DNA from: Verrucomicrobiales bacterium
Lineage (GTDB): Bacteria > Verrucomicrobiota > Verrucomicrobiia > Verrucomicrobiales > Akkermansiaceae
Length of the DNA stretch: 64,000 bases
Assembly: GCA_038237425.1 (NCBI GenBank)
Contig: JBBRYQ010000024.1
Coordinates: 1,005-65,004 of the forward strand
Direction: 5' to 3'
In this document: positions 2 to 43,540 of the stretch, in pieces
How positions within the stretch are numbered: the first letter of the stretch is position 1
Layout of the letters: the number at the start of each line of letters is the position of its first letter
Notes under the pieces: model-generated
Told to the model about the DNA's origin: nothing
Seen by the model: the letters and a program-made list of their open reading frames with translations, nothing else
Databases searched by the model: none
Position numbers and translations under genes: made by a program

Positions 2-1330
2 GTTCACACGCTCACGGATTGTGTGAGCAAAAACGGTAACCTTCTACTCAATGTTGCGCTCAGAGCCGACGGCACCATTGATCCAGAAGAGCGTCTTCGG
101 CTTCTCGAAGTCGGTTCATGGCTTACCACCAACGGCGAGGCAATCTACGGCACTCGACCCACCCATCTCTGGGGCGAAGGACCGACATCGATCAAGAACT
201 GGCTTGCAGTGGACAAGAGCCTTCCGGCATTTACTTCCGATGATGTCCGGTTTACGGCAAAGGGAGACACCTTGTATGCCATCGTGATGCGCCGGCCCGT
301 TGGCAGTGCTCATTTCCAAGCGCTGCGCAATGGGGCGGCAATCTTTTCCGGTAAAATCAAAAAAGTGGAAATTCTCGGTTGCTCCGAACTCCCCGCGTGG
401 AAGCAGGACGATGATGGACTGCACGTCGAAATTCCTGCCAGTGTGGCCGCCAAAACCACCAGCGACATGGGTGTTGCGTTTAAAATAACTGGCTTGACCG
501 ACTTGGCCCGCGATGGAGTGGTGCGTCCCTTGGCGAATGGTAATATCCAGATGACTTGCTGGGATGCCCATATCACCGGAGAGGGCCTCGGACCGCAGGA
601 CTTTGAGCCGGCACTCCGTGATTGGAATCAAGCGGATTCTTTCCCTGAGTGGAATTTCTACTGCCCCTCTCCCGGCACCTACCTGGTGCAGGCATACTAT
701 AGTGCCGCTAAAGGGGAATGCGAAGCCGTCGTGGCCACACCCGGTGGCAGCATTTCATGGAAAATCGCGCCGACCAAAAGTGATAAGGATTTTCGTCTGG
801 TGACCTTGGGCGAGATCAAGATCGAAAAAGCCGGACGTTACTCGCTATCGGTGAATCCAACTAAAGAAAATTGGAAACCCATTGAAATATCATACATGCA
901 GCTGAAAAATCCGGTTTTCTGCGCTTCTGCTAGACATCAAATCGAATTGAAGGTAGAAGATGCTTCATTGTTGGGTGAAAAGTTTTTCATGGAAAGTCAC
1001 GACGGTCAGCCAAATGTAGGCGGATGGAATTCCACCGAGGATCATTTGTCGTGGGCAAACGTGCAATTTGAAAAAGCCGGGGTGTATCAAATCCACATGA
1101 AAGCAGCAGCAGCGGACGGAGATACGGCGTTCGACCTAACTGCCGGAGCCGAAAAGTCTTCATGTAGCATGAAAAAAACAGAGAACTGGAACTTGTTGGA
1201 TGATATCGTGGTAGGCGAAATTAAAATCGACAAGCCAGGCATTCATCAGGTCGAAATGTATCCCGCCAAGTCGCGCTGGAAACCGGTCAATCTCTCGCGC
1301 GTGACCTTCCAACTTCGCGAGGGCGGCTGA
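2..1330 (+). CDS. Alpha-L-fucosidase (GH29), 5'-truncated by the window edge, with C-terminal CBM6/CBM35-like beta-sandwich modules
   Basis: The frame is open from base 2 (VHTLTDCVSKNGNLLLNVALRADGTI...GSWLTTNGEAIYGTRP), the typical end of the GH29 barrel. Two sugar-binding-like modules follow (e.g. NVGGWNSTEDHLSWANVQFEKAGVY). Confidence 0.8.
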   Translation, partial: VHTLTDCVSKNGNLLLNVALRADGTIDPEERLRLLEVGSWLTTNGEAIYGTRPTHLWGEGPTSIKNWLAVDKSLPAFTSDDVRFTAKGDTLYAIVMRRPVGSAHFQALRNGAAIFSGKIKKVEILGCSELPAWKQDDDGLHVEIPASVAAKTTSDMGVAFKITGLTDLARDGVVRPLANGNIQMTCWDAHITGEGLGPQDFEPALRDWNQADSFPEWNFYCPSPGTYLVQAYYSAAKGECEAVVATPGGSISWKIAPTKSDKDFRLVTLGEIKIEKAGRYSLSVNPTKENWKPIEISYMQLKNPVFCASARHQIELKVEDASLLGEKFFMESHDGQPNVGGWNSTEDHLSWANVQFEKAGVYQIHMKAAAADGDTAFDLTAGAEKSSCSMKKTENWNLLDDIVVGEIKIDKPGIHQVEMYPAKSRWKPVNLSRVTFQLREGG

Positions 1331-1394: not shown

Positions 1395-1457
1395 CTGCCT
1401 CTGGAGGGAGGCAGTCACGGGGCGGAGTTCGGATTTTGGGTTTTCCGGGCTCCGCCC
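1395..1457 (+). other. Conserved two-hairpin intergenic element, copy 1 (copy 2 at 40695-40757)
   Basis: Stem 1 is CTGCCTC-TGGAGG-GAGGCAG (1395-1414). Stem 2 is GGGCGGAGTTCGGA-TTTTGGGTTT-TCCGGGCTCCGCCC (1420-1457). A near-identical, covarying copy lies upstream of the second kinase. Confidence 0.65.
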
Positions 1458-1605
1458 ATCCGCTCGAACAGAGAGAGAGATCGTCGAGCCGGCAGGCGAA
1501 CAAGTGATGAATTACCCCGAGGTGAATCTGGACACGACCTGTCCGCTTGGTTTTGATACTCCTGTTCACCTACCGATGCCTCGGCCCGTCTCCATTTCGA
1601 TTGCA

Positions 1606-3792
1606 ATGCGTCTCTGCCGCACCGCAGCCATCCTGTTCAGCCTCTGCAGCTCACTGGCAGGGGCGGATGCCATGGCTCCGCTCCCCTCCGCCCGCGATGT
1701 TCTCAACCTTTCCGCGAACGACGCGAAACGTGGACTGCCGGTGCGGGTGCGCGGCGTGGTCACCTATACTGAGAAGGCCTGGGCTGGCCAGTTCTTCGTG
1801 CAGGATGAGACCGGCGGCGTGTTTGTCGGATATTCCGGTAAGCCGGCACCTGAGATCGGACAAGTCGTCGAAGTGAAGGGCGTCAGCCATCCGGGGGCAT
1901 TCGCTCCGTTCATTGAGAAGCCGGACTGGACAGCGATCGACCGGGCCCCCTTGCCTGCCGCCCGCGAGATCTCGATGGAGCGCTTCGCCAGCGGCATTGA
2001 CGACGGACTTCGCGTGGAGGTCCGAGCTCGCGTGAAACGAGTTTTTCAAAAGGGCGGAAATCAATGGGGCCTCATTGTTTCTTCGGGCGGTCATCGTTTT
2101 GAAGTAACGATCTGTCCGCCGCAGCCGGACGCGCCACTTCCGCATGAGTGGATCGGTTCCCTTGTCCGGATGCGCGGGGTGTTGGCCGCGGACTATCAAC
2201 TCCATCGCCGGGGGCTGGCCATGGTCCGCTTGTTTGTGGCTTCCACCGACGATGTTCTCATCGAGCAATCTGAGGAGTTTGATCCATTCAAAGGCGCGCT
2301 GCTGCCACTCTCTGGCGTGGGGCAGTATCGGCGGGATCTCGCACCCGGTCAGCGTAGCCGTGTGCGAGGTGTGGTCGTCGCACGGTTAGGCGCTGAGAGT
2401 CTTGCAATCGAAGACGACAGTGGTGGACTGATCATCAAAGGCGGCGAGCTATCCCCATTTGCGCCGGGTGATCCGATCGAAGCCGTCGGATTCGAGGAAC
2501 TGGAAAATTTCCTACCCTTCTTGCAAGATTCGGTCGTTACCAGGACGGGCGAAAGCCAAGGCCTGCCCGCGATCGTGCGGCCGTCGATCGATGAATTGCT
2601 ACTCGGCAAGTTTCATGCATGTCTGATAGGCTTGGAGGCTGACCTCATCGAAATCAGCGACCGTCCGGCTGCCGATGGCAGTGGCAAGGGCCGGGAAATC
2701 GTGATGACGCTTCAGAGCGGCGGGCATGCGTTTAAAGCCGACTTTGCTGATAGTGCGGTGGAGAATGCCGGCCTCCCGTTCGAGCCTGGCAGCAAGGTGA
2801 GCCTGACGGGCCTTTGCCTCGCTGAGGCGAACCGGATCGGCCGGGTTGACTCATTCCGAATGCGGCTTGCCGGCCCGGCGGCAGTCCGAGTAATGCAACC
2901 GCCGCCATGGTTGAACCGCCAACGTCTGGGGCTGGCACTCGCTTTTGCGATGGGCGGTATGATCCTTTCCGGATTGTGGGTATATTTCGCTTCCATGAAA
3001 AATCGCCGACTGCGTGCTGAAATTAAAGAGAGGAAAAAACTAACGGTGGAACTCCAGCAGGCCAAACAACAACTCTCGATGCGCGTCGATGAGCGAACGG
3101 AAGAACTCAAGCTTCAGATCAGCGAGCGCAGGGAATCCGAGGTCCGGTTCAAGGCCGTCATCGGCGAGCGTACCCGCCTCGCTCAGGAACTGCACGATGG
3201 CTTACAACAAGGGCTTACCGGACTAGCACTCCAGCTCGACACCTCATCCCGCCTGCGTGAGCGCTTGCCGGAACAATCGAACCATCACCTGGAACTCGCC
3301 CGCATCCTCGTGCGCCAGACTCATGTGGATCTCCGTAACTCGGTGTGGAATCTCCGTTCCCGCAGTCAGGAAGATTTCAGCTTGTTAGAAGCGCTCCGTC
3401 AATCGAGCCACCGCGCTACCGAAGGCACCGACGTGCAGGTCGAAGTTAGTCAATCCGGCGAGCTGCACAATCTGTCGGAACTGCAGGAGGAAAATCTCCT
3501 CCGCATCGGTCAGGAAGCACTTCACAACGCGCTCAAACACTCCCAGTCCGACCGCATGGAAATCCACCTCGATTTTTCCCCAAACCTGCTGGTTTTGCGG
3601 ATTCGGGATTTTGGCAAAGGTTTCTCGCCGCTTACCGTGGACGGCCCTTCGCAGGGTCACTTCGGATTATCTGGAATGGCAGAGCGCGCGCAACGGATCG
3701 GCGGCTCGCTTGAAATTCACAGTGAGCCGGGAGCCGGCACCTTGATCGAAGCGCAGTTACCGCTCGCCCCACCTCCATCTGTTAATCCATGA
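1606..3792 (+). CDS. Membrane sensor histidine kinase (HisKA_3/HATPase_c) with a large extracytoplasmic region of OB-fold-like repeats
   Basis: Signal peptide MRLCRTAAILFSLCSSLAGA (ATG 1606 preferred over 1369 and 1576), TM helix RLGLALAFAMGGMILSGLWVYF, H-box RLAQELHDGLQQ, ATPase motifs EALHNALKHS, DFGKGF and GHFGLSGMAER. Confidence 0.9.
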   Translation: MRLCRTAAILFSLCSSLAGADAMAPLPSARDVLNLSANDAKRGLPVRVRGVVTYTEKAWAGQFFVQDETGGVFVGYSGKPAPEIGQVVEVKGVSHPGAFAPFIEKPDWTAIDRAPLPAAREISMERFASGIDDGLRVEVRARVKRVFQKGGNQWGLIVSSGGHRFEVTICPPQPDAPLPHEWIGSLVRMRGVLAADYQLHRRGLAMVRLFVASTDDVLIEQSEEFDPFKGALLPLSGVGQYRRDLAPGQRSRVRGVVVARLGAESLAIEDDSGGLIIKGGELSPFAPGDPIEAVGFEELENFLPFLQDSVVTRTGESQGLPAIVRPSIDELLLGKFHACLIGLEADLIEISDRPAADGSGKGREIVMTLQSGGHAFKADFADSAVENAGLPFEPGSKVSLTGLCLAEANRIGRVDSFRMRLAGPAAVRVMQPPPWLNRQRLGLALAFAMGGMILSGLWVYFASMKNRRLRAEIKERKKLTVELQQAKQQLSMRVDERTEELKLQISERRESEVRFKAVIGERTRLAQELHDGLQQGLTGLALQLDTSSRLRERLPEQSNHHLELARILVRQTHVDLRNSVWNLRSRSQEDFSLLEALRQSSHRATEGTDVQVEVSQSGELHNLSELQEENLLRIGQEALHNALKHSQSDRMEIHLDFSPNLLVLRIRDFGKGFSPLTVDGPSQGHFGLSGMAERAQRIGGSLEIHSEPGAGTLIEAQLPLAPPPSVNP

Positions 3793-4433: not shown

Positions 4434-7400
4434 ATGATCCTTTCACGAATCCCTTCCGCCATCCTCGCGCTGGCCTTCACTTATTCTGCTGCATTTCTAA
4501 CGGCCGCCCCTGTCACGGAAAAACTTTCGCTCGACCGCGGGTGGAAATTTCACGAGGGCGACATCCCGTTCCCCGAGATCAAGGGCCACGGAAATTCCTA
4601 TAACAACGCCAAGGCCGGCAAGGCCTGGGGCGCGGCGGCTCCGGAGTTCGATGATAGCCAGTGGCGCGTGCTCGATCTGCCGCACGATTGGGCAGTCGAG
4701 CAGCCGTTCGACCAAAACGCGAACCTCTCCCAAGGCTACCGCCCGCGTGGCTTCGGCTGGTATCGCCGCAGTTTCAAACTTGATCCCGCCGACCGTGGCA
4801 AGGCACTGGAACTCCAGTTCGACGGCATCGCCACCCATTGCACCGTCTGGCTCAACGGCACCATCGTCCACCGCAACTGGTGCGGCTACACCAGTTTCCA
4901 AATCGACCTCACGCCGTTCGCGAATTTCGGCGATCATCCTAACAATCTGGCCATCCGCGTGGATGCCCAGGCCATGGAAGGCTGGTGGTATGAAGGGGCT
5001 GGCATCTATCGCCACACTTGGCTGGTGAAACGGAACCCGCTGAATATTCCCACCGACGGTGTCTTCGCCCACCCGGTGAAAAAGCCCGATGGAAACTGGG
5101 AAATCCCCGCCGAAGTCACGCTGTCTAACATCGGCGACCAGGCGGTGACCGGCGAAGTCCATTGCGTTCTGCTAGATCCCGCTGGCAAGCAAGTCGCCGA
5201 GACTAGAACGACCCTCCAAGTTCCCTATCTCGATACCGCCGTGGCGAAACTCAGCATCCCTGTGAGCCAGCCGAAACTCTGGTCCGTGGACACGCCCACG
5301 CTCTACACCGTGCGCACCACCGTGCTGCGGGAGGGTGCCGTGAGCGACACCGTGGAAACGCGCTGCGGATTCCGCACGCTCCGCTTCGATGCCAAGCTGG
5401 GATTTTTTCTCAACGACCAACCGCTCAAGTTGAAGGGCACCTGCAATCACCAGGACCACGCCGGAGTCGGCGTGGCGGTGCCGGATTCGTTATGGGAGTT
5501 CCGCGTCCGCCGCCTCAAGGAGCTGGGATCTAACGCTTACCGCTGCGCCCACAACCCGCCCGCCAAGGAGTTTCTCGAAGCCTGCGACCGCATGGGAATG
5601 TTAGTGATGGATGAAAATCGCAATTTCAACGTCTCCCCGGAATACGTCCGCCAGCTGGAATGGCTGGTCCGCCGCGACCGCAACCACCCGAGTGTGATCC
5701 TGTGGTCGGTCTTCAACGAGGAAACCACCCAGGGCACTGAGATGGGCTATCAGATGGTGCGCCGCATGGCCGCCGTGGTGAAGCGGCTCGACAAAACACG
5801 GCCCGTGACCGCGGCGATGAGCGGTGGCCACAAGACGCCGATCAATGTCTCCCAAGCCGTGGACGTGGTAGGCTTCAACTACAACCAGAACGTGTATGAC
5901 GAGTTCCACAAGGCTCATCCCGATCTGCCGATCACCAGCTCTGAAGACACCTCTTCATTCATGACCCGTGGCATCTATGAAACGGACAAGTCGAAGAACC
6001 TCATCGGCTCCTACGACGACCAGCGCGCCCCTTGGGGACTCACCCACCGCTACGCTTGGCGCTGCATTTCCGAGCGACCATTCGTGGCAGGCGGCTTCGT
6101 CTGGACCGGCTTCGACTACCGTGGCGAACCGACACCGCTGGAATGGCCGTCCGCCGGATCGTTCTTCGGCATCATGGACCAGTGCGGATTTCCCAAAGCC
6201 GCCTACTACCTCCACCAAGCGCATTGGATCGAGGACAAGCCCGTCCTCCACTTGATCCCGCATTGGAACTGGCCCGGCAAGGAAGGAAAGAACATCCGTG
6301 TGATGGTTCTAACCAATGCCGACACCGTAGCCCTCACCCTCAACGGCAAGCCACTTGAGGAGAAGAAAGTGGATCCCATTGACATGGTGGAATTCCAAGT
6401 TCCCTACACGCCTGGTAAACTTGAAGCGATCGGCAAAAAGCAGGGCAGGGAAGTCTCCCGCTTCGTCGTGGAAACCACTGGCAAGCCCGCCGCTCTCGAA
6501 ATCATCCCCGATCGCAAGTCTCTAGCAGGCGACGGTGCGGATGCCATGCCCGCCACCCTCCGCGCGGTGGATGAGCAGGGTCGCGAGGTGCCCGATGCCA
6601 ATCTAATGGTCGATTTCGAAACCCACGGCACGGGTGACATCATCGGCGTCGGCAATGGAGATCCAAACTGCCATGAGGCGGAGAAACTCATCCCCACCCG
6701 CACCTCGCGCAGTGCGGCTCTGAACGACGCGTGGAAATGGACCCCCGTGAAAGACTACGCCGCCAAGGACATGCCCGAGGTGAAATCCGACTTTGACGAT
6801 TCCTCATGGAAGGTCGCAGACATCACGCCCGAAAAGGGGCCTGTGCCGGAAGGGCAACACGCGGTTTTCCGCAGGAAGATCACGCTCACGGCGGAGGATC
6901 TAACAGCCTCTCGCATCGTGCTCAATCTCGGCACTATCGATGACGTCGGGCTGGTGTTCGTGAATGGCAGCCGGATTGGCGAGTCGAAGAGCTGGTCCGA
7001 GCCCTTCGTCCGCGACATCAAGTCCGAGCTGCACGAGGGCGGCAACATCATTGCAGTCAGCCTGCACAACCAGGACCACGACGGCGGACTCGGCAAGGGC
7101 GCGTCGCTCCAGTTTTCCGGGCAGAATGAAGTCACCGGCTGGAAGCGCAGTTTGTTCAATGGCCTCGCCCAAGTCATCGTGCAATCACGGCGCGACGGTT
7201 CCGGTGCGTTGGTTCTCCAAGCCCGGGCGGCAGGCCTCAAGCCGGCCGAAGCACGAATTCAGATCACTGCGGCGAGTGCTCCACCGTCGGTCGAGAATCC
7301 CTCTTCAGACATGACTCTATCAAGCTGGCTGCAATCGCCAGTTTCCGCCCAAGCTCCCGATCCGAACGCAAAATTTGCCGACAACGACATGAACAGCTGG

Positions 7401-9208: not shown

Positions 9209-11512
9209 TCAGGGTTGCGAAATCCTGAGGCGGACGAAACGGTTGCTGTCTCCTGCGGGGAGTGTGAGCTTGATGGTTGTTGTGTTAGGGTTTTCCGTCA
9301 TTAGCGTTTCGGGAGAGATTCCAGAGCTGCTCCAGTCTTGGAGGAGCGTGTCCGACCACTCGAGTTGGAATGTGGCCGCGGCATCTTTGCGGCGGGTGTA
9401 GGTGAATTCGAGTGTCGTGCCGGTCTTCGCGAAGATGGGGTCGAACGTATCCGGTTTTTTGGGGTCTAGGTAGAGTGCCCATTCGAGAAGGTTGTTGAGT
9501 CCATCGCCATCTGGATCCGCATTGGGGCCGATCACATTCAGGTCGCTGGAGCCAGGCCAGGCGAGTGTCTGCCAATCGGTGAAAATGGCTGGATTGAGGG
9601 CGGCGGTGACGGCGAGGGTGCGTTCGACCGAGCCGAGGGGACTCGTGGCAGTGAGTTTGAGTAGATAGGTTCCCGAGGTGGGAAAGATCGCGGTGGTGGC
9701 GGGTGATGCGGAGTTCCCGAAAGTCACGGCAGCGGGGCCGGAGATGGATTGCCAAAGTGAGGATGTGGCTCCAGCGGCGTTTCCTAACAATGATTCCGCA
9801 ATGCCTGCGGTGGCGGCAGGCGGAGGACCTGTGGAGACGGTAGGTAGCAGGTTTCCAATGAAGGTGATATTGAGCTGCGGGCGGTCGTCTGGCAGAAGTG
9901 CATCATCGCTGGCGAGGCGGGTGAAGGCAGCCGCATCGGTGGCGGTGGCAGTGGTGAGGATGAGATCGAGTGGTTGACTGGAGTCTCTGGCAGCTTGGGC
10001 GGCGGCGACGAGAGCGGTGGAGCTGGGGAGCGTGCGGATTTCACCGGCAATCGTGGCATCGTAGCCGGGGAGCGTGCTGAGGATGTTGTTTGCAAAATCG
10101 CCCCCCGGAGTGGTCCATAGATCGCTCGCAGTGGTGCCACCCGTCCGGGTGAGCCAGGTGGCTCCGGTGCCAGTGCCGAGGTAGGCGCTGGTGCTATCCG
10201 AAATGCCGTCGCCTTCGGTGGGGGTGGCGGTGAGTTTGCGGAGTTGGAGATCGCCGATGGTGCCGGTGCTGGCGAGGGTCTTGAGATCGAGGGCTACAGC
10301 TTGGATGGTGGAGCCGGGCTGGAGGGGTGTTAGATCAAAGGAAAACAAAGCGCGCATTGCGCCATTGCGGCCAGCGAGAATCTGGTCACGGGCACCTGCA
10401 TTCCAATCTGGATAATCCGAGCGAATGGTGGTGGCGGTGTGGGAGTAGCCGGGGTTTCCCTGGCGCAGGGCGAGAGTGATGGGTGCAGCGACTCCGACAT
10501 CGATGCGGGCGCTGTTAGTTCCGCCTTCGTTGGTGGCGGCGCATTGGAGGGTATAGCTGCCGGGCGCGGAGAACGTGGCGGTGGTTTGGGCGGAGGCGGG
10601 AGTGGAGAATGTCACCGTGCCGGGACCGGCGATGGATGACCATGCGATGGTGGGCGTGCCAGATGGGGCGGTGACGTTTGCGTTCAATTGCAGCGTCTGG
10701 GAGGAGTCGGCGATGCTAACACCGGGTGACGACGGGCTAACGATGCTGACGGTGGGCGCGGGAAAGGGTTCGTAGTAGCGGACGTAGTCGAACTGGGCCT
10801 CGGCCGGGAGTTTGGTATCATCCACGCTCGTCGTTCCACCGAGTGGGGCGGCGATGGAGGTGAGCCAGATGTTCATGTCATCGTGTGGGAACTGGGAGGC
10901 GTCCACCGTCTGCACCACGGCACCGTCGAAGAGGTATCTAACCGTGGTCGGCGTGAACTCACATCCGAAGATATGGAAATCCGCGCTAAGGGAAGGCGTG
11001 GTGACGGGTTTGGTGCCGAAGGTGAGGTGGGGCAATGGCAGGTGGCGGTGAACATTCACTGCGTATTTGAGAGGAGTGACCGAATCATTTTCGATGACGT
11101 CCAACTCGATCGCGACGGTATCGGTGGCAGGACGATTGTATTTCATCATCCAGAACGACGTGTGCCATCCGCCGCCGGGCGGAATTTTCATGCGGGCTTC
11201 GTAGTAGCCGTAGCGGACGAGGTTTTTACTAATCACTCCGCCGGCGGTGTAGTTCACGGTGCCGACGGTTTCTTTTTTCAAATGCAGGTGAAGCAGACCT
11301 CCAGAAACACTGACGTTTTGCGGCTGCTGAGTGCTCCAGTAGCGGGTGTCCGTGCGGTATTGCCACTTTGCGGCGTCGAGCACGGTGCCGTCGAATTCAT
11401 CCTGCCAGGCGAGTTTATAGCCGGGTGGTGCTGCGGCATGGGCGGAAGGGCCAAGGAGCGCGGCGAACAGTGCTACAAGCGGGGCAACCAGGAAATGGGC
11501 TTTTTGAAACAT
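9209..11512 (-). CDS. Secreted modular GH16 protein: GH16 + PKD/Ig-like + DNRLRE-like + shared C-terminal module
   Basis: Signal peptide; WQDEFDG, YGYYEARMK and catalytic ELDVIE (ExDxxE); GARDQILAGRNGAMRALFSFDL (DNRLRE-like); DPDGDGLNNLLEWAL; ends RFVRLRISQP. Confidence 0.85.
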   Translation of the reverse strand: MFQKAHFLVAPLVALFAALLGPSAHAAAPPGYKLAWQDEFDGTVLDAAKWQYRTDTRYWSTQQPQNVSVSGGLLHLHLKKETVGTVNYTAGGVISKNLVRYGYYEARMKIPPGGGWHTSFWMMKYNRPATDTVAIELDVIENDSVTPLKYAVNVHRHLPLPHLTFGTKPVTTPSLSADFHIFGCEFTPTTVRYLFDGAVVQTVDASQFPHDDMNIWLTSIAAPLGGTTSVDDTKLPAEAQFDYVRYYEPFPAPTVSIVSPSSPGVSIADSSQTLQLNANVTAPSGTPTIAWSSIAGPGTVTFSTPASAQTTATFSAPGSYTLQCAATNEGGTNSARIDVGVAAPITLALRQGNPGYSHTATTIRSDYPDWNAGARDQILAGRNGAMRALFSFDLTPLQPGSTIQAVALDLKTLASTGTIGDLQLRKLTATPTEGDGISDSTSAYLGTGTGATWLTRTGGTTASDLWTTPGGDFANNILSTLPGYDATIAGEIRTLPSSTALVAAAQAARDSSQPLDLILTTATATDAAAFTRLASDDALLPDDRPQLNITFIGNLLPTVSTGPPPAATAGIAESLLGNAAGATSSLWQSISGPAAVTFGNSASPATTAIFPTSGTYLLKLTATSPLGSVERTLAVTAALNPAIFTDWQTLAWPGSSDLNVIGPNADPDGDGLNNLLEWALYLDPKKPDTFDPIFAKTGTTLEFTYTRRKDAAATFQLEWSDTLLQDWSSSGISPETLMTENPNTTTIKLTLPAGDSNRFVRLRISQP

Positions 11513-37134: not shown

Positions 37135-37150
37135 TCATTCGAAAGGATGA
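37135..37150. promoter_or_regulatory. Palindromic candidate operator, copy A
   Basis: TCATTC-GAAA-GGATGA, followed 11 nt later by TTGCCG. Lies between the divergent 37059(-) and 37233(+) genes. Confidence 0.65.
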
Positions 37151-38049: not shown

Positions 38050-40620
38050 ATGAAACTCCGCATCAATCCATTCCTCTGTAGCGCTATCAGTCTCTTGTTT
38101 GTTGTGTCATCTCACGCCGCCAGCTTCTCATGGGATGGCACCAGCACGGGGACAGGCGCTCAAGGCGGTGTAGGAACCTGGGATTCCAACACCACCGCCA
38201 ACTGGTGGAACGGCACCACCAATGTGGTATGGCCAGCCTCCGGCACGGATAATGATGCGGTCTTCGGTGCTACTGCTGGCGCAGTTGCCGTCTCCGGAAC
38301 CGTGACAGTTAACGACATGTCCATTGCGACAGGCTACACCATTGGTGCGGACAACACGATAGGCAAGATCATCCTCAATGGCACCACTCCGACCATTACG
38401 ACTACAGGCTCAGGCGGCACTGCGAACATCGGTGCAATTATTGACGGCTCCGCAGGTCTCACCACAACGGGACCAGTCACCGTCCAACTTCGGGGGGCGA
38501 ACATCTACACCGGTGATACCCGGGTGTTGAATGGCACACTTTTAATCGGCCTCGGCAACAACCGATTGCCCACCGGGACGACGCTTATTCTGGGAGATAG
38601 CGTGGCAAACACCAGTGGCGTGTTTCAGATGAACTCACGCAGCCAGCAAGTGGCCGGCTTGCAATCTGTTGGCAGCGGCACAGGCAATCGCGTCATCAAT
38701 GGCAACGTTACCGCCAGCACCTTCACCGTCAGCAACACCACGGACCAGACATTCGGCGGAATTCTTGGTGGCACCGGGAGCAATCATAACAACTTCCTCC
38801 TGACAAAATCTGGCGCTGCAAATTTGGTTCTCACCAATACAAACACTTACACAGGTGCTACTTCGGTCTCCGTTGGCACGCTGACTTTGGCGAAGAATAA
38901 CACGCTCAGCCAATACACCAATGTCTCCATTTCCGCTGCCGCGACTCTTGCGTTGCGCACGGGTGATGGCACCACTGGATGGAGTGAGGCGCAAATTGAT
39001 ACGCTCCGTGGCACCTCTGGATTTTCCCTCGCGGCGGGATCGTTTTTGGGATTTGACACATCCACCAACGGGGATTTCACCTACAGCACAAGCATCAGCG
39101 GCAGTCCCACCTATGGATTGAGCAAGCTTGGGGCAGGCACACTTACAATTTCCGGCACAAACACCTACACGGGCACCACGGCTATCAAGAACGGGAGCCT
39201 CGCACTGACCGGCGGTAATGACCGCCTACTGACTACAGGTTCAGTCGTGCTCGGAGATGTGTCCACTGCTGGAAAGCTCATCCTTGGTGATGCGACTACC
39301 GCGAGAGACCAAACCCTTGCGGGCCTCACCGTCACTGGCACGGGTGGCAGCGTGGTGGGCGCGGCGGTCGCGAATTCAGTTCTCACCCTGAACAATGCCA
39401 GTGGCACCAATACATTCGCCGGCAAATTGGGGGGAACCGGGCTGAACGAAAATAAACTCGCCTTAACCAAGGACGGAGCAGGCACGCTCGCGCTCTCCGG
39501 CGACAACTCATTCACGGGGGATGTCACGGTGAGCGCTGGTAGGCTCGCGATTTCCCACTCCAACGCCCTCGGCACCGGCACGAAAAACTTCTTCATGCAA
39601 GGAGGGAGCCGGGTGTTCGAGATTTCCAATAACATCACGCTCGGCAGCAACATCACATTGAATGCTTCCACCAACTCCGGTGATGGCTTAGGTATTGTGA
39701 GCAGCAGCGGCACCAATGAAATTCAGGGACAAATCAACATCACGACTGGAAACGGAGTTCTTAACGTTTCCAGCACTGCCGGTACTCTGACATTGTCTGG
39801 AAATGTCACAGCGACCACGACCGGGAGAGCTTTGATCCTCGGCGGTGCATCAGCGAATGCCAACACCGTCAGCGGGATCATCAGCAATGGCGGCACACCC
39901 AACATGCCCGTCACCAAGCAGGGCGCTGGTAAGTGGGTGCTCTCCAAAGCAAACACTTACAGCGGCGACACCACCATCACAGGAGGCACACTTGCTCTCA
40001 GTGGCAGCGGCTCCATCGCTAACAGCGCGAATATCGCCGTCGCTTCGGGTGCCACTTTCGATGTGAGCACGGTCACGAGCGGCAATTGGTCCTTGGGATC
40101 CACTCAGAAACTCACCGGCAGCGGCGGGCTGACGGGGGCCACCACCATCAGTGGCACCCACAATGCGGGGGATGCCGCTACGAATGCGGGCGTTGGCTCA
40201 CAAGCATTTTCTAGCAGCCTGTCCTATGCGAATGGGTCCATTTTCGAATGGGATCTGAATGCGAGTTCCACGAGCAGCGGTTTCGACACGGTGTCCGCAG
40301 TCGGCGCAATTGGCGTGGGCACCACGAGCACTGTATTCAAGGTCCTCTTCGGCGCCACCGCCCTTGCCGACGTGCAGAACAGCGGGAATACCTTCTGGAA
40401 CACGCCCTTTGTTACCCGTGTCTGGAATATGAGCGATGTCTTTGGTAAAGCGTTTACCTCAGGTGCCTTCCAAAGTGTAGCGACCAGCTCCGATGTTTCC
40501 ACCTACGGCTCTTTCACCATCACCAGCAGCACCCTCACCTGGACCGCCGTGCCCGAGCCCACCAGTGCCTTGGCCGGTCTTCTAATCACCGCTGGCCTGC
40601 TGCGCCGGCGCCGGGCTTGA
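38050..40620 (+). CDS. PEP-CTERM surface protein with autotransporter-associated beta-strand repeats
   Basis: Repeats LTKSGAANLVLTNTNTYTGAT, LSKLGAGTLTISGTNTYTGTT, LTKDGAGTLALSGDNSFTG and VTKQGAGKWVLSKANTYSGDT. C-terminus is AVPEPTSALAGLLITAGLLRRRRA. Confidence 0.92.
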   Translation: MKLRINPFLCSAISLLFVVSSHAASFSWDGTSTGTGAQGGVGTWDSNTTANWWNGTTNVVWPASGTDNDAVFGATAGAVAVSGTVTVNDMSIATGYTIGADNTIGKIILNGTTPTITTTGSGGTANIGAIIDGSAGLTTTGPVTVQLRGANIYTGDTRVLNGTLLIGLGNNRLPTGTTLILGDSVANTSGVFQMNSRSQQVAGLQSVGSGTGNRVINGNVTASTFTVSNTTDQTFGGILGGTGSNHNNFLLTKSGAANLVLTNTNTYTGATSVSVGTLTLAKNNTLSQYTNVSISAAATLALRTGDGTTGWSEAQIDTLRGTSGFSLAAGSFLGFDTSTNGDFTYSTSISGSPTYGLSKLGAGTLTISGTNTYTGTTAIKNGSLALTGGNDRLLTTGSVVLGDVSTAGKLILGDATTARDQTLAGLTVTGTGGSVVGAAVANSVLTLNNASGTNTFAGKLGGTGLNENKLALTKDGAGTLALSGDNSFTGDVTVSAGRLAISHSNALGTGTKNFFMQGGSRVFEISNNITLGSNITLNASTNSGDGLGIVSSSGTNEIQGQINITTGNGVLNVSSTAGTLTLSGNVTATTTGRALILGGASANANTVSGIISNGGTPNMPVTKQGAGKWVLSKANTYSGDTTITGGTLALSGSGSIANSANIAVASGATFDVSTVTSGNWSLGSTQKLTGSGGLTGATTISGTHNAGDAATNAGVGSQAFSSSLSYANGSIFEWDLNASSTSSGFDTVSAVGAIGVGTTSTVFKVLFGATALADVQNSGNTFWNTPFVTRVWNMSDVFGKAFTSGAFQSVATSSDVSTYGSFTITSSTLTWTAVPEPTSALAGLLITAGLLRRRRA

Positions 40621-40694: not shown

Positions 40695-40757
40695 TTTGCC
40701 TCTGGAGGGAGGCAAACCCCAAGGCGGAGTCTGGTATTGGGTTTCCAGACTCCGTCT
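40695..40757 (+). other. Conserved two-hairpin intergenic element, copy 2
   Basis: TTTGCCTC-TGGAGG-GAGGCAAA (40695-40716), then AGGCGGAGTCTGG-TATTGGGTTT-CCAGACTCCGTCT (40722-40757). Confidence 0.65.
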
Positions 40758-40868
40758 GTGATGGGGGACGGGGAAGGGGTATTTGATCGGTCAGTTTGGG
40801 TTTTCTTTTACCTGCATGGGTCTTGAAGTCCTCGACTCTGCGTGGGTTCGTGCTACTCCTTATTCCAC

Positions 40869-42917
40869 ATGGCTTTTGTCCGCGCCATTCTTGGTTGTTT
40901 CCTGCTGATGTCTGCCGTTTCCGCCGCCGCGCCGTTGACTCGGCTGGCGGATATCAGGGCTTTGTCTGCGGAGGAGGCTGCCAAGGGGATTCCCGTGCGG
41001 GTCGAGGGGACAGTGGTGGCGATCGAGCCGAGTACCCGCTATCAATTTTTCCTGAATGATGGGACAACCGGTTGTTTCATCCGGCCGGTCGAAGGGGGAA
41101 GTCCGGCGGGTCTGTCGCCCGGCGATCAAGTGCGGGTAGAGGGCGTGACCGATCCACTCGGTTATTATCCCAGCGTGAGGAAAGCCCGCGTGAAGGTTTT
41201 GGGAAAACAGAGTTTGCCCACTCCGATCAAACCCGGTGCAGGTCAGATCTTCGCGCCGGAACTCGATTCGCAATGGGTGGAGGTGCCGGCGGTGATTACC
41301 GGATGTGACGTAGGTGATGATCGTGTGACGCTGGCACTGGAAATTTTCGGACTACCGTTCAAGGCAGAGCTACCACTCACTCCGGATGCGGAGGATCGTG
41401 CCGCCGCACTGATGCAGCGGCCGGTCTCGTTGTGCGGCGTGATGGGCACCATTTTCAACCGCCAGCGGCAGATGACCGACCGCCACTTTTTCGTTTCTTC
41501 CTTCGATGCGATCACGCCCACCGGTCCCTTGGCGGATGGCGAGGCCAGCCCACTAGTCAATGTGGACCGCTTGCTCAGCGGTGGATTCGGCCCGGCCACG
41601 ATGGTGCGCGTGCAGGGGGTGGTCACCCAGCAGGATGCGAAGGGATTCTATCTGCGGGACGGGAGCGGCAGCACTTTGATCCAAGCGGCTAAAGTGGTAA
41701 ATTTCCCGTGCGGAAGTCATGTCGAGGTAGAGGGCTATGCTGCGGTGGCTCCTTTCAGGCCGGTATTGCGCGCGACTCATGTGAAGAGCATGGGTCCAGC
41801 AGTGGCGGTGCTCCCCGCGCCCTTCGATTTTCAAAAAAACGATCCCCAAAATACCGATCTCGCCGCGCTGCAATCCGAATGGGTCACGCTGGATGCCGAG
41901 TTCCTCGGTCGCAGGGATGGCCCGGGGGACGCGATCCTGCAATTCCGCGGTGCCGGCCAGTTTTTCGAAGCTTTCCAGCCCCATACTACCGGTGAAATGC
42001 GTCCTGCTCTGGCCGTCGGCGACCGCGTGCGCCTCACCGGAATCTGCGAACTCACCACCACCCACGCCTTGCCGCGGATGGGCTGGGTCGATGGTTTCCG
42101 GATTCACCTGCCCGGCGTCGGCGGCTTGGAAATCCTCAGTCGCGCGCCGTGGTGGAATTCCCGGCGGTTGTTCATTGCCCTTGGACTGGCCAGCATGGTG
42201 GCTCTCTCTGGCCTGATCTGGACATGGGTGCTCCGTCGCCGCGTCAAGAGCCAGATGGCTGTCATCAGCGAGAATCTCCGCACCGAAGCAGTCGGCGAAG
42301 AACGCGACCGGATGGCCCGCGAACTCCACGATACTCTTGAGCAACAACTTCTGGGTGTGGCTCTTCAGTTAGATCGCATCGAGTCTGCTGTGCAAGAAAC
42401 TCCGGCTGCTGGCATCTTGTCGCTGGCCCGCCGGATGTTGCGGTTTACCCGCTTGGAGGCCCGCCGCTCGGTCTGGGATTTGCGCTCGAGGGTGCTGGAA
42501 GCGCACGGCCTCGCCACTGCCCTTCAGGGTCTCGCTGACTCCAAGGTGGAGGATGCTCCTGGGCCCGCGATCCAGGTCCAGGTGAGCGGAAACGAACACC
42601 CGCTCCCCACCGGCGTGGATTTCCACCTGCTGCGCATCGCCCAGGAAGCCATCACCAATGCCACCAAACACGGCGATGCCCGCCACGTCACCCTGGAACT
42701 CGACTATCTTCCCGAAGAGACCCGCCTCACGATCCGCGACGATGGCCATGGCTTCGATCCCGCTGCGGCGACCTCTCCGGGACCCCACTTCGGATTGCTT
42801 GGCATGCGCGAGCGGGCTGCCAAGATCGGGGCCACATTGGTCATTCACTCCGCCCCCGGCAAAGGATGCTCCATCATCGCCAATGTTCCCACCGTATCCA
42901 ACTCTCACTCCTCATGA
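40869..42917 (+). CDS. Membrane sensor histidine kinase (HisKA_3), same architecture as 1606-3792
   Basis: Signal peptide MAFVRAILGCFLLMSAVSAAA, OB-fold-like repeats, TM helix LFIALGLASMVALSGLIWTWVL, RMARELHDTLEQ, EAITNATKHG, DDGHGF, HFGLLGMRER. Confidence 0.9.
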   Translation: MAFVRAILGCFLLMSAVSAAAPLTRLADIRALSAEEAAKGIPVRVEGTVVAIEPSTRYQFFLNDGTTGCFIRPVEGGSPAGLSPGDQVRVEGVTDPLGYYPSVRKARVKVLGKQSLPTPIKPGAGQIFAPELDSQWVEVPAVITGCDVGDDRVTLALEIFGLPFKAELPLTPDAEDRAAALMQRPVSLCGVMGTIFNRQRQMTDRHFFVSSFDAITPTGPLADGEASPLVNVDRLLSGGFGPATMVRVQGVVTQQDAKGFYLRDGSGSTLIQAAKVVNFPCGSHVEVEGYAAVAPFRPVLRATHVKSMGPAVAVLPAPFDFQKNDPQNTDLAALQSEWVTLDAEFLGRRDGPGDAILQFRGAGQFFEAFQPHTTGEMRPALAVGDRVRLTGICELTTTHALPRMGWVDGFRIHLPGVGGLEILSRAPWWNSRRLFIALGLASMVALSGLIWTWVLRRRVKSQMAVISENLRTEAVGEERDRMARELHDTLEQQLLGVALQLDRIESAVQETPAAGILSLARRMLRFTRLEARRSVWDLRSRVLEAHGLATALQGLADSKVEDAPGPAIQVQVSGNEHPLPTGVDFHLLRIAQEAITNATKHGDARHVTLELDYLPEETRLTIRDDGHGFDPAAATSPGPHFGLLGMRERAAKIGATLVIHSAPGKGCSIIANVPTVSNSHSS

Positions 42918-43540
42918 AGTCAAAACCCATTCGCATCCTGGTCGTGGACGATCATTTCCTGCTCCGCATCGGCTTGGTCGGTGCCATTTCCGATGAGTCT
43001 GATATGGAGGTGGTCGGCGAGGCTTCAAACGGTCAGGAGGCGGTCGATAGTTTTGAATCCCTCCACCCTGATATCACTCTCATGGATGGCATGCTCCCGG
43101 ATATCCATGGCGTGGAGGCTTGCCAACAGATTTTGGAAAAACACCCGGATGCGCGCATTATCCTGATTTCTATCAATGACACTGCCGAGGATGTTCACCG
43201 TGCCTTGGACGCCGGTGTCTGGGGATACATTCCGAAGTCCTGCGAGAAAAATGCGATCCTGCATGCCATTCGGAGCGTCGCTTCAGGGGAGCGTTTCTTA
43301 CCACCCGACCTCGCGGAAAAGCTCGAAGAGCGTGACACGCATGCGCTCCTCACCAGCCGCGAGTTAGATGTCTTGCGTCTCGTCGCTAAAGGACTTGCTA
43401 ACAAACAAATCGCCGCCGAACTCGCGGTGGGAGAGCCTACCGTAAAGAGCCACGTCGCTCATATTCTTGATAAACTCGAAGTCCCGGACCGCACCCGCGC
43501 GGTGACCCTCGCCATGGAGCGCGGTTTGTTGCGCAATTGA
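42914..43540 (+). CDS. NarL/LuxR-family response regulator
   Basis: ATG 42914 overlaps the kinase stop; motifs ILVVDDH, ITLMDGMLP, LTSRELDVL...ANKQIA...TVKSHV. Confidence 0.93.
   Translation: MKSKPIRILVVDDHFLLRIGLVGAISDESDMEVVGEASNGQEAVDSFESLHPDITLMDGMLPDIHGVEACQQILEKHPDARIILISINDTAEDVHRALDAGVWGYIPKSCEKNAILHAIRSVASGERFLPPDLAEKLEERDTHALLTSRELDVLRLVAKGLANKQIAAELAVGEPTVKSHVAHILDKLEVPDRTRAVTLAMERGLLRN

Follow-up and report, generated by a model that had tools for sequence, protein, structure and literature searches.

A two-hairpin RNA element at the ends of PEP-CTERM surface-protein genes in Luteolibacter-type bacteria

The window analysed here, by which we mean the whole stretch of 64,000 nucleotides, belongs to a genome designated G000 and carries on its + strand two HisKA_3 sensor kinase genes. 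Kinase 1 lies at 1576..3792, its start at 1576 being supported by conservation in genome G022; kinase 2 lies at 40869..42917 and is followed by a response regulator gene (42866-43540). A short element folding into two hairpins is present upstream of each of them, copy 1 at 1395-1457 and copy 2 at 40695-40757. The gene preceding copy 2 (38050..40620, + strand) encodes a surface protein of 856 aa with PATR repeats (Pfam PF12951), whose C-terminus is a PEP-CTERM tail (VPEPTSALAGLLITAGLLRRRRA), and it is most likely the gene served by this copy. Copy 1 is preceded by the C-terminal part of an alpha-L-fucosidase gene with CBM/DUF5077 domains (23..1330, + strand), devoid of a PEP-CTERM tail and separated from the copy by an A+T-rich spacer of 64 nt. 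This fucosidase-CBM gene is an exception in G000, and the orthologous locus of G022 has a PEP-CTERM gene instead. The spacing reported by the earlier note, with a stop codon upstream and a HisKA_3 kinase downstream, is borne out: hairpin 1 starts 64 nt after the stop ending at 1330 for copy 1 and 74-75 nt after the stop ending at 40620 for copy 2, and hairpin 2 is followed at 118 nt and 111 nt by the kinase ATG codons at 1576 and 40869, respectively.

The intergenic regions contain other conserved blocks. About 50 nt before the kinase 2 ATG, the block GAAGTCCTCGACTC (window 40820-40835) is conserved at loci L085, L087 and L092 and is also retained in G247, where the kinase 2 orthologue has no element; it is probably the own promoter region of the kinase 2 operon. 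In front of kinase 1, a GGACA-N6-TGTCC palindrome followed by CTTGG (window 1529-1545) is conserved with G022. Candidate operator sites of the kinase 2 two-component system were found at window positions 37135, 37945 and 53646.

Both copies share an 18-nt core, TGCCTCTGGAGGGAGGCA, which has exactly two matches in the window, at 1396-1413 and 40697-40714, both on the + strand; 0.04 would be expected by chance and two matches were reached in none of 100 shuffles. In copy 1, fold and core match place hairpin 1 at 1395..1414 (+), with a stem of 8 bp, a GGAG loop and the conserved base (C)UGCC...GGCA(G), while fold and model match place hairpin 2 at 1420..1457 (+), with a stem of 14 bp including two U-G pairs, a loop containing UUGGGUUU and no U-tract on its 3' side. 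Copy 2 consists of hairpin 1 at 40695..40716 (+; fold and core match), with 9 bp and again a GGAG loop, and of hairpin 2 at 40722..40757 (+; fold), with 13 bp, the loop UAUUGGGUUU and no U-tract. The predicted RNA folds are stable (-42.6 kcal/mol, z = -4.1 for copy 1; -45.4 kcal/mol, z = -4.4 for copy 2), and the covariance model scores the copies at 86.3 and 74.1 bits, respectively. Hairpin 1 is closed by a C-G pair in copy 1 but by U-A in copy 2, whereas the hairpin 2 sequences differ between the copies and yet pair in both, around a loop containing UUGGGUUU. Thus the two folds agree with what the earlier note had read from the letters: an identical core, compensatory flanking pairs, a second stem divergent but paired around a conserved loop, GGAG exposed in a 4-nt loop of the first stem, and the lack of a U-tract. 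Neither a consensus terminator nor a sigma-70 promoter was predicted on the element itself in either window copy. Among orthologous copies, that of copy 1 in G022 displays an identical hairpin 2 stem sequence and an added U6 tail, and those of copy 2 in G032, G212 and G236 have compensated hairpin 2 stems.

In the 5.38-Mb assembly of G000, which is 95.7% complete, the exact core occurs five times, and once more with a single mismatch; a covariance model derived from these six copies (R1, alignment A2) found 12 copies in this genome. The search of the genome and its relatives that the earlier note had proposed led to a collection of 70 distinct copies, from genomes that are mostly MAGs and in which related copies are not independent observations; they come from four genera of the family, in MAGs titled Luteolibacter or Akkermansiaceae. 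The distribution is patchy: 8 of 36 congeners have the element, with 1-15 copies each, and a family-wide draw of 150 other genomes gave 11 with matches, these 11 belonging to four genera; within one genus of this draw, the element was present in 1 of 16. No matches were obtained among the 31 genomes of genus g20, and outside the family there were only a few weak ones, the E-values being rough as they come from a short model calibration. In public records, the exact 20-nt word of hairpin 1 is met in freshwater MAGs titled Luteolibacter sp., Akkermansiaceae bacterium and Verrucomicrobia bacterium. The comparison with Rfam, also proposed earlier, gave no match of the window to Rfam 15 at the gathering score; at E<=5, four weak chance matches appeared over ten copy-holding loci, none of them on the element. 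Our reading of the literature found no described PEP-CTERM-linked RNA or Verrucomicrobial sRNA of this kind. The two-hairpin element is a genuine RNA structure that had not been catalogued before.

Its structure is under selection. In 45 aligned copies, 97.0% of stem cells are standard pairs, a percentage inflated by the fitting of the alignments to the model, as compared with 81.8% in column shuffles and 36-60% with slid partners. Changes on both sides were found in 19 of 20 pairs, and the observed measures were reached by none of 500 shuffles. In the set of 70 copies there are 134 G-U cells, and pairing amounts to 96.9% in the sense orientation versus 88.0% in antisense, again with the inflation due to model fitting. 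These G-U cells and the better sense pairing indicate that the structure is selected in the sense-strand RNA, which in the window is the + strand. The element is therefore, as had been supposed, an undescribed and covarying RNA structure, and a strand-specific one. The stem of hairpin 2 is variable, all four bases occurring at its positions among the 70 copies. Its loop, (A/U)UGGGUUU, is nearly invariant, the core U-G-G-G-U-U-U being kept in 57-69 of the 70 copies. The bases of both hairpins are invariant as well (UUGCC...GGCAA in hairpin 1, GGGCGG...CCGCCC in hairpin 2). The loop of hairpin 1 is mostly GGAG, with GAAA, GCGG, CGAG or longer variants, and at locus L067 the loop motif is carried by hairpin 1 itself.

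Several other identities were considered and discarded. A DNA-level operator formed by the TTGCC...GGCAA palindrome disagrees with half-site spacing varying up to ~14 nt and with G-U pairs that show RNA-level selection. A sigma-54 promoter over hairpin 1 (GG...TTGC) would have a spacing off by one base, and the GG exists only in copies with the upstream module Q. A pseudoknot in which the linker AAUCCC pairs with the loop finds no conserved complementarity (copy 1 reads GUCAC), and such a contact would be sterically implausible across a 12-bp stem. A small ORF starting at the (A/U)UG of the loop shows no conservation of frame, length or peptide. As to a CsrA/RsmA binding site, the hairpin 1 loop is variable and PF02599 was not found in the 95.7%-complete G000. 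An integron attC site does not fit either, the copies being dispersed over many contigs and the G-U (G-T) pairs fitting the sense and not the bottom strand. Pairing of the loop with the AUGAAACC starts of secreted proteins was left as speculation: MKP starts are common in G000 (103 ORFs), and ATGAAACC is only the fifth commonest of sixteen ATGAAANN words.

The most constant property of the element is the gene that precedes it. According to our own ORF heuristics, 65 upstream ORFs could be called over all genomes, and 49 of them end in a sorting tail (42 PEP-CTERM and 7 GKLF tails); in these 49 cases hairpin 1 follows the stop at a median of 66 nt, and at 50 nt or less in 22. Several of the remaining copies stand after genes of LuxR-type regulators or of GKLF-like variants. 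Wherever a neighbour could be called, the copy runs in the same direction as the upstream gene; inverted pairs are absent, and no convincing case of a divergent upstream gene was found among the copies examined. In G000, 10 of the 12 copies follow a gene with a PEP-CTERM tail (VPEP...LLRRRR) or a GKLFGRLQVVKP-type tail, and since sorting tails are rare among the genes of this genome, this represents a very large enrichment. The carriers, 6 PEP-CTERM and 4 GKLF genes, are a subset of each class: regular expressions for the C-terminus matched 52 PEP-CTERM-like ORF ends, about half of them spurious by eye, and 14 GKLF-like ones. Genes downstream of the element are much more diverse in G000, namely the two HisKA_3 kinases, PATR-repeat giants, a prepilin-like gene, an unassigned secreted protein, or nothing nearby. 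At C7, C4:1668 and C21 the next gene is convergent or absent, convergence being seen at C7 and C4:1668.

Many giant secreted proteins of G000 start with MKP(K) and end with [KR]-x-F-x-R-[LV]-x-[VI]-x-x-P, of which the commonest form is GKLFGRLQVVKP. Next to PEP-CTERM, this motif seems to constitute a second C-terminal signal, and both gene classes carry the element.

The earlier note had tied the element to sensor-kinase operons. This link is not supported by the census, in which only 2 of the 12 G000 copies precede kinases while the upstream sorting-tail gene is the constant partner (the 49 of 65 cases above), nor is it supported by the orthologous loci. For kinase 2 (orthologues 59-65% identical), the order PEP-CTERM gene, element, kinase is found in G000, G032, G212 and G236. 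The element is absent from G247, G214 and G022, where no PEP-CTERM gene is found upstream. In G005, a degenerate element with a U7 tail remains, and the upstream PEP-CTERM gene is cut to a 28-codon signal-peptide remnant. For kinase 1 (orthologues 73-85% identical), the order in G022 is PEP-CTERM gene, element 18 nt on with its U6 tail, then kinase, while G214 and G247 have neither PEP-CTERM gene nor element. Altogether, of 12 orthologous kinase loci, 5 have both the element and an upstream PEP-CTERM gene, 5 have neither, and 2 are leftovers, with an element but no intact PEP-CTERM gene; these two exceptions are kinase 1 in G000 and kinase 2 in G005. The element is thus missing at 5 of the 12 loci, all 5 of which lack the upstream PEP-CTERM gene. 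Copy census and orthologous loci together rule out a kinase-specific leader, and HisKA_3 kinase 1 adjoins the element without being its constant partner. The scatter over gene types that the earlier note had named as evidence against its proposal is therefore found where the kinase link is concerned, but it does not extend to the behaviour of a generic REP or MITE. On the contrary, the element is kept where the kinases are only ~62-65% identical and the flanking spacer is not alignable, which argues for function and not for recent spread. In our view, the element belongs to the ends of PEP-CTERM surface-protein genes in Luteolibacter-type bacteria and not to sensor kinases.

The second hairpin has terminator character in part of the copies. 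At least six T within the 10 nt following hairpin 2 are present in 30 of the 70 copies (43%), versus 1.3% of 10-mers from the same loci. In G000, however, only 2 of the 12 copies have such a U-rich tail, neither of them in the window, and the tail is labile between orthologous copies. Hairpin 2 itself, with 12-14 bp and a G+C-rich stem, is located shortly 3' of a co-directional stop, the median distance between stop and element being 66 nt. In several copies the next gene starts 9-60 nt past hairpin 2, so that the element is then also the 5' leader of that gene; from the many copies so arranged it follows that the element is often intercistronic. The absence of a U-tract in 10 of the 12 G000 copies means that canonical termination is not the common denominator. 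Moreover, a plain terminator needs neither a conserved loop nor a hairpin 1, and part of the function is thus unexplained by termination.

The description that we favour, giving it about an even chance, is that surface-protein mRNAs carry the element as a 3' or intercistronic module which terminates and stabilises; the earlier note, with its 'processing/stability element or REP-like repeat', came close to it. The element would be co-transcribed with the gene upstream, forming either the 3' tail of exported surface-protein genes of the PEP-CTERM or GKLFGRLQVVKP type or the spacer between such a gene and the next cistron. Where hairpin 2, with its 12-14 mostly G-C pairs, is followed by a U-tract, it would act as an intrinsic terminator. 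Without a U-tract, as in both window copies, it may rather represent a leaky barrier to transcription and a block to 3'-exonucleases. The upstream surface-protein message would in this manner be stabilised and its dosage uncoupled from that of the downstream genes, here the two two-component operons, so that the element would set the ratio of an abundant surface protein to the downstream products. In the window, read-through over the U-less element into the kinase and regulator genes could even provide a damped positive feedback. Hairpin 1 and the invariant (A/U)UGGGUUU loop are under selection of their own. As the same apical loop is also displayed by a stand-alone sRNA with sigma-54-type promoters, it most likely serves for the docking of a trans-acting partner, protein or RNA, common to both.

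A search of G000 with the loop word gave three further sites, which are not two-hairpin elements. They are sites of the stand-alone sRNA, a single long hairpin of ~75 nt in which a conserved basal stem (GGCGGUCCGACUGA paired with UCAGUCGGGCCGCU) is topped by the apical GG-UUAAUGGGUUUU-CC and a U-tail follows. In G000 it is located at C53:4239-4339 (+), C12:28377-28465 (-), C12:28152-28227 (-) and C34:24158-24282 (+) (loci L131, L130 and L186; alignment A5, model R3). BLASTN, run on 23 genomes sampled from the genus, detected it in 21 of them at 1-5 copies per genome, and model R3 in 28 of 151 genomes from six families of the order; this model did not find it in g20. Its neighbours are unrelated genes (KUP, LexA, MutL, IleRS and others). 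Most copies have a sigma-54-type promoter, TGGCAC-N5-TTGC, in front of them: a strict TGGCAC-N4-5-(G/T)TGC at fixed distance accompanies 17 of 27 copies, and about 3 more were recognised by eye (e.g. L136, L152); RpoN is encoded in G000. The sRNA had no match in Rfam, and Hfq, CsrA and Ro were not detected in G000. An identity with Y RNA/Ro, evoked by the resemblance to GGUCCGA, was rejected, there being no TROVE protein and no Rfam match. The stand-alone hairpin is probably an undescribed sRNA family of Verrucomicrobiales, and it may outweigh the two-hairpin element in importance. The same loop shown by this sRNA and by the gene-tail element suggests a shared trans-acting partner. One may go further and suppose that the (A/U)UGGGUUU loop defines a post-transcriptional cell-surface regulon, in which one factor would read both the tails of PEP-CTERM/GKLF mRNAs and the sigma-54-type sRNA, although we hold this to be rather improbable. 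If it were true, sRNA and mRNA tails would be competitors for the factor, or cut-off tails would act in an sRNA-like way.

Other repeated modules were noticed around the element. About 1/10 of the copies are preceded by a covarying hairpin module that starts with GGGGACAAGTGGGCG and ends with CTCACGCCCTACC, in a short and a long form. Up to 1/3 of the copies, counted by a loose 10-mer match, are preceded by a GAGAGAAAG/CTTTCTCTC hairpin located just after PEP-CTERM stops, and a few are followed by a module with two GCAGCCTGCTGCCGC words. Upstream modules, 80-150 nt 5' of the element, are found at loci L012, L020, L027, L034, L044, L051, L053 and L055, and downstream modules at L025, L028, L038, L049 and L054. 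Taken together, these flanking modules make up a BIME-like mosaic. A single-hairpin variant lies in G000 at C139:~5745-5790 (-; L132), 23 nt after a PEP-CTERM stop, in which the hairpin 1 base TTGCC/GGCA directly encloses the loop of hairpin 2, UUUAAUGGGUUUCU. A further intergenic repeat follows the C21 copy (C21:~1200-1300), with two tandem units of ~60 nt, each ending in a GGGGTTTTTAACCCC hairpin after GCGGCCTCCCCG.AATAAGGAGAA.

Three other readings partly overlap with that of a 3' or intercistronic module. The element could belong to the gene that follows, as its regulated 5' leader or attenuator. Hairpin 2 would then serve as conditional terminator or translation block, and a factor that recognises hairpin 1 and the loop would release or enforce this block and so govern how much transcription passes into kinases, prepilin-like genes and giant adhesins. 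Many copies indeed stand 9-120 nt before a co-directional start codon, leaving no room for a promoter, and in some copies U-tract terminators directly abut the start (e.g. L055 at +9). Moreover, the element stays by the kinase after loss or exchange of the upstream gene (kinase 1 in G000, kinase 2 in G005), and persists in G032 and G212, where the type of upstream PEP-CTERM tail differs from that of G000. Nevertheless, no family is common to the downstream genes, at least three G000 copies are devoid of a nearby co-directional downstream gene, and no anti-terminator pairing is conserved in alignment A4, the 5' arms of both hairpins being rich in G. Where no PEP-CTERM gene precedes a kinase orthologue, the element is lacking too, but the promoter-like block downstream of its would-be site is kept. 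On balance we find a leader of this kind unlikely. The two hairpins might otherwise be cut from the surface-protein mRNA as a 3'UTR-derived sRNA acting in trans via its loop, in parallel to the stand-alone sRNA. The apical loop GG-UUAAUGGGUUUU-CC of the element is identical to that of the independent, terminator-ended sRNA present in several families of the order, and a conserved single-stranded loop on a variable stem has the look of a seed or a protein site; Hfq not being detected, a loop-based recognition is plausible. On the other hand, no complementary target is enriched, the extended anti-loop word occurring in G000 only three times outside elements and sRNAs, and more than half of the copies lack the usual U-tail; such an origin seems quite unlikely to us. 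One of the three words, a perfect 10-nt loop complement (AAACCCAUUA) at C71:9263-9272, lies 5-14 nt upstream of the ATG at 9277 of a 256-aa secreted TPR-like protein; we mention this single case as a lead only.

The element might also be a REP/BIME-like interspersed repeat without host function, whose structure would stay intact solely through its own way of spreading, by recombination between paralogous tails or by a transposase. It is multi-copy (1-15 per genome) and patchy among the species of one genus (8/36; 1/16), other repeated modules often surround it as a mosaic, near-identical copies are found in non-orthologous contexts in two species (L012, L025), and G000 contains 23 Y1-transposase-like matches. 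Yet it is maintained at orthologous loci over deep divergence, with compensatory changes and an unchanged loop; its copy number is low (12 in 5.4 Mb), its orientation always follows the flanking genes without inverted pairs, and terminal inverted repeats or target duplications were not found. No element lies near the four strong Y1_Tnp genes (C29, C5, C91, C125), and a single weak PF01797 match is located ~1 kb from the C4:1668 copy. We consider a functionless repeat a poor candidate, and we reject membership of the REP/RAYT system on grounds of low copy number, single orientation and absence of the element at strong Y1_Tnp genes. As a separate observation, Y1_Tnp matches (PF01797, IS200/RAYT-like) are unusually many in G000, at 23 places, several within long open frames, and none of them adjoins the element.

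The element shares features with several known systems. Like intrinsic terminators, it presents a G+C-rich hairpin soon after a co-directional stop, with a U-rich tail in 43% of copies. Ordinary intrinsic terminators show no conserved second hairpin or invariant loop, whereas the element has a second, upstream hairpin and a 7-nt invariant loop conserved across genera, and both window copies and most G000 copies have no U-tract. In E. coli, REP/BIME sequences (e.g. malE-malF) are extragenic transcribed hairpin repeats placed after stops, within operons or at their ends, and some are composed of several modules; they are able to shield the message upstream of them and to fix the proportion of one cistron to another. 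The element resembles them as a hairpin-forming repeat located after stop codons and sometimes part of a mosaic. It differs from them by its 1-15 copies per genome, its single orientation without inverted pairs, the absence of any RAYT association in our searches, its tie to surface-protein genes with sorting signals, and the fact that the loop and not the stem is conserved.

CsrB-CsrA and CrcZ-Hfq/Crc are pairs in which sRNA and mRNA carry the same motif and share a protein partner, CrcZ being sigma-54 dependent. Here too, one short motif is present on mRNAs and on a dedicated sRNA, the latter with sigma-54-type promoters. Unlike in these systems, CsrA and Hfq were not detected in G000, the motif is situated in 3' tails and not at ribosome-binding sites, and the stand-alone sRNA has one copy of the motif, not many. 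CpxQ, MicL and SroC are sRNAs derived from 3'UTRs; the putative parallel lies in an envelope-protein mRNA whose 3' end is structured and exposes a conserved segment, but many copies of the element are without a terminator tail. A conserved non-coding element specific to PEP-CTERM genes has a precedent in the upstream sigma-54/PrsR cis-regulatory site of proteobacterial PEP-CTERM genes, and further motifs outside Proteobacteria were expected still to be found (Haft et al. 2006, PMC1569441). The sigma-54/PrsR site is, however, a DNA motif upstream of genes in Proteobacteria, whereas the two-hairpin element is an RNA structure downstream of genes in Verrucomicrobiota.

At the locus itself, these results correct the annotation: the two two-component operons have no private riboswitch-like leader and would follow a leaky, structured spacer with which the surface-protein gene before them ends. 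More generally, the exported surface proteins of the PEP-CTERM type form a large class that is still poorly understood, and to our knowledge the upstream sigma-54 site of Proteobacteria is the sole non-coding element so far tied to them. We know of almost no regulatory RNAs described in Verrucomicrobiota, and of no sRNA network. The element marks the 3' ends of PEP-CTERM genes in this phylum, is kept by selection across genera and has its loop in common with a conserved sRNA. Should the regulon that we consider improbable exist after all, the output of surface proteins would be coupled to a sigma-54 signal in bacteria where Hfq and CsrA were not detected. Being a conserved structured RNA at the ends of PEP-CTERM genes, with a loop shared by an sRNA, the element provides a concrete handle on RNA-level control in Verrucomicrobiota.
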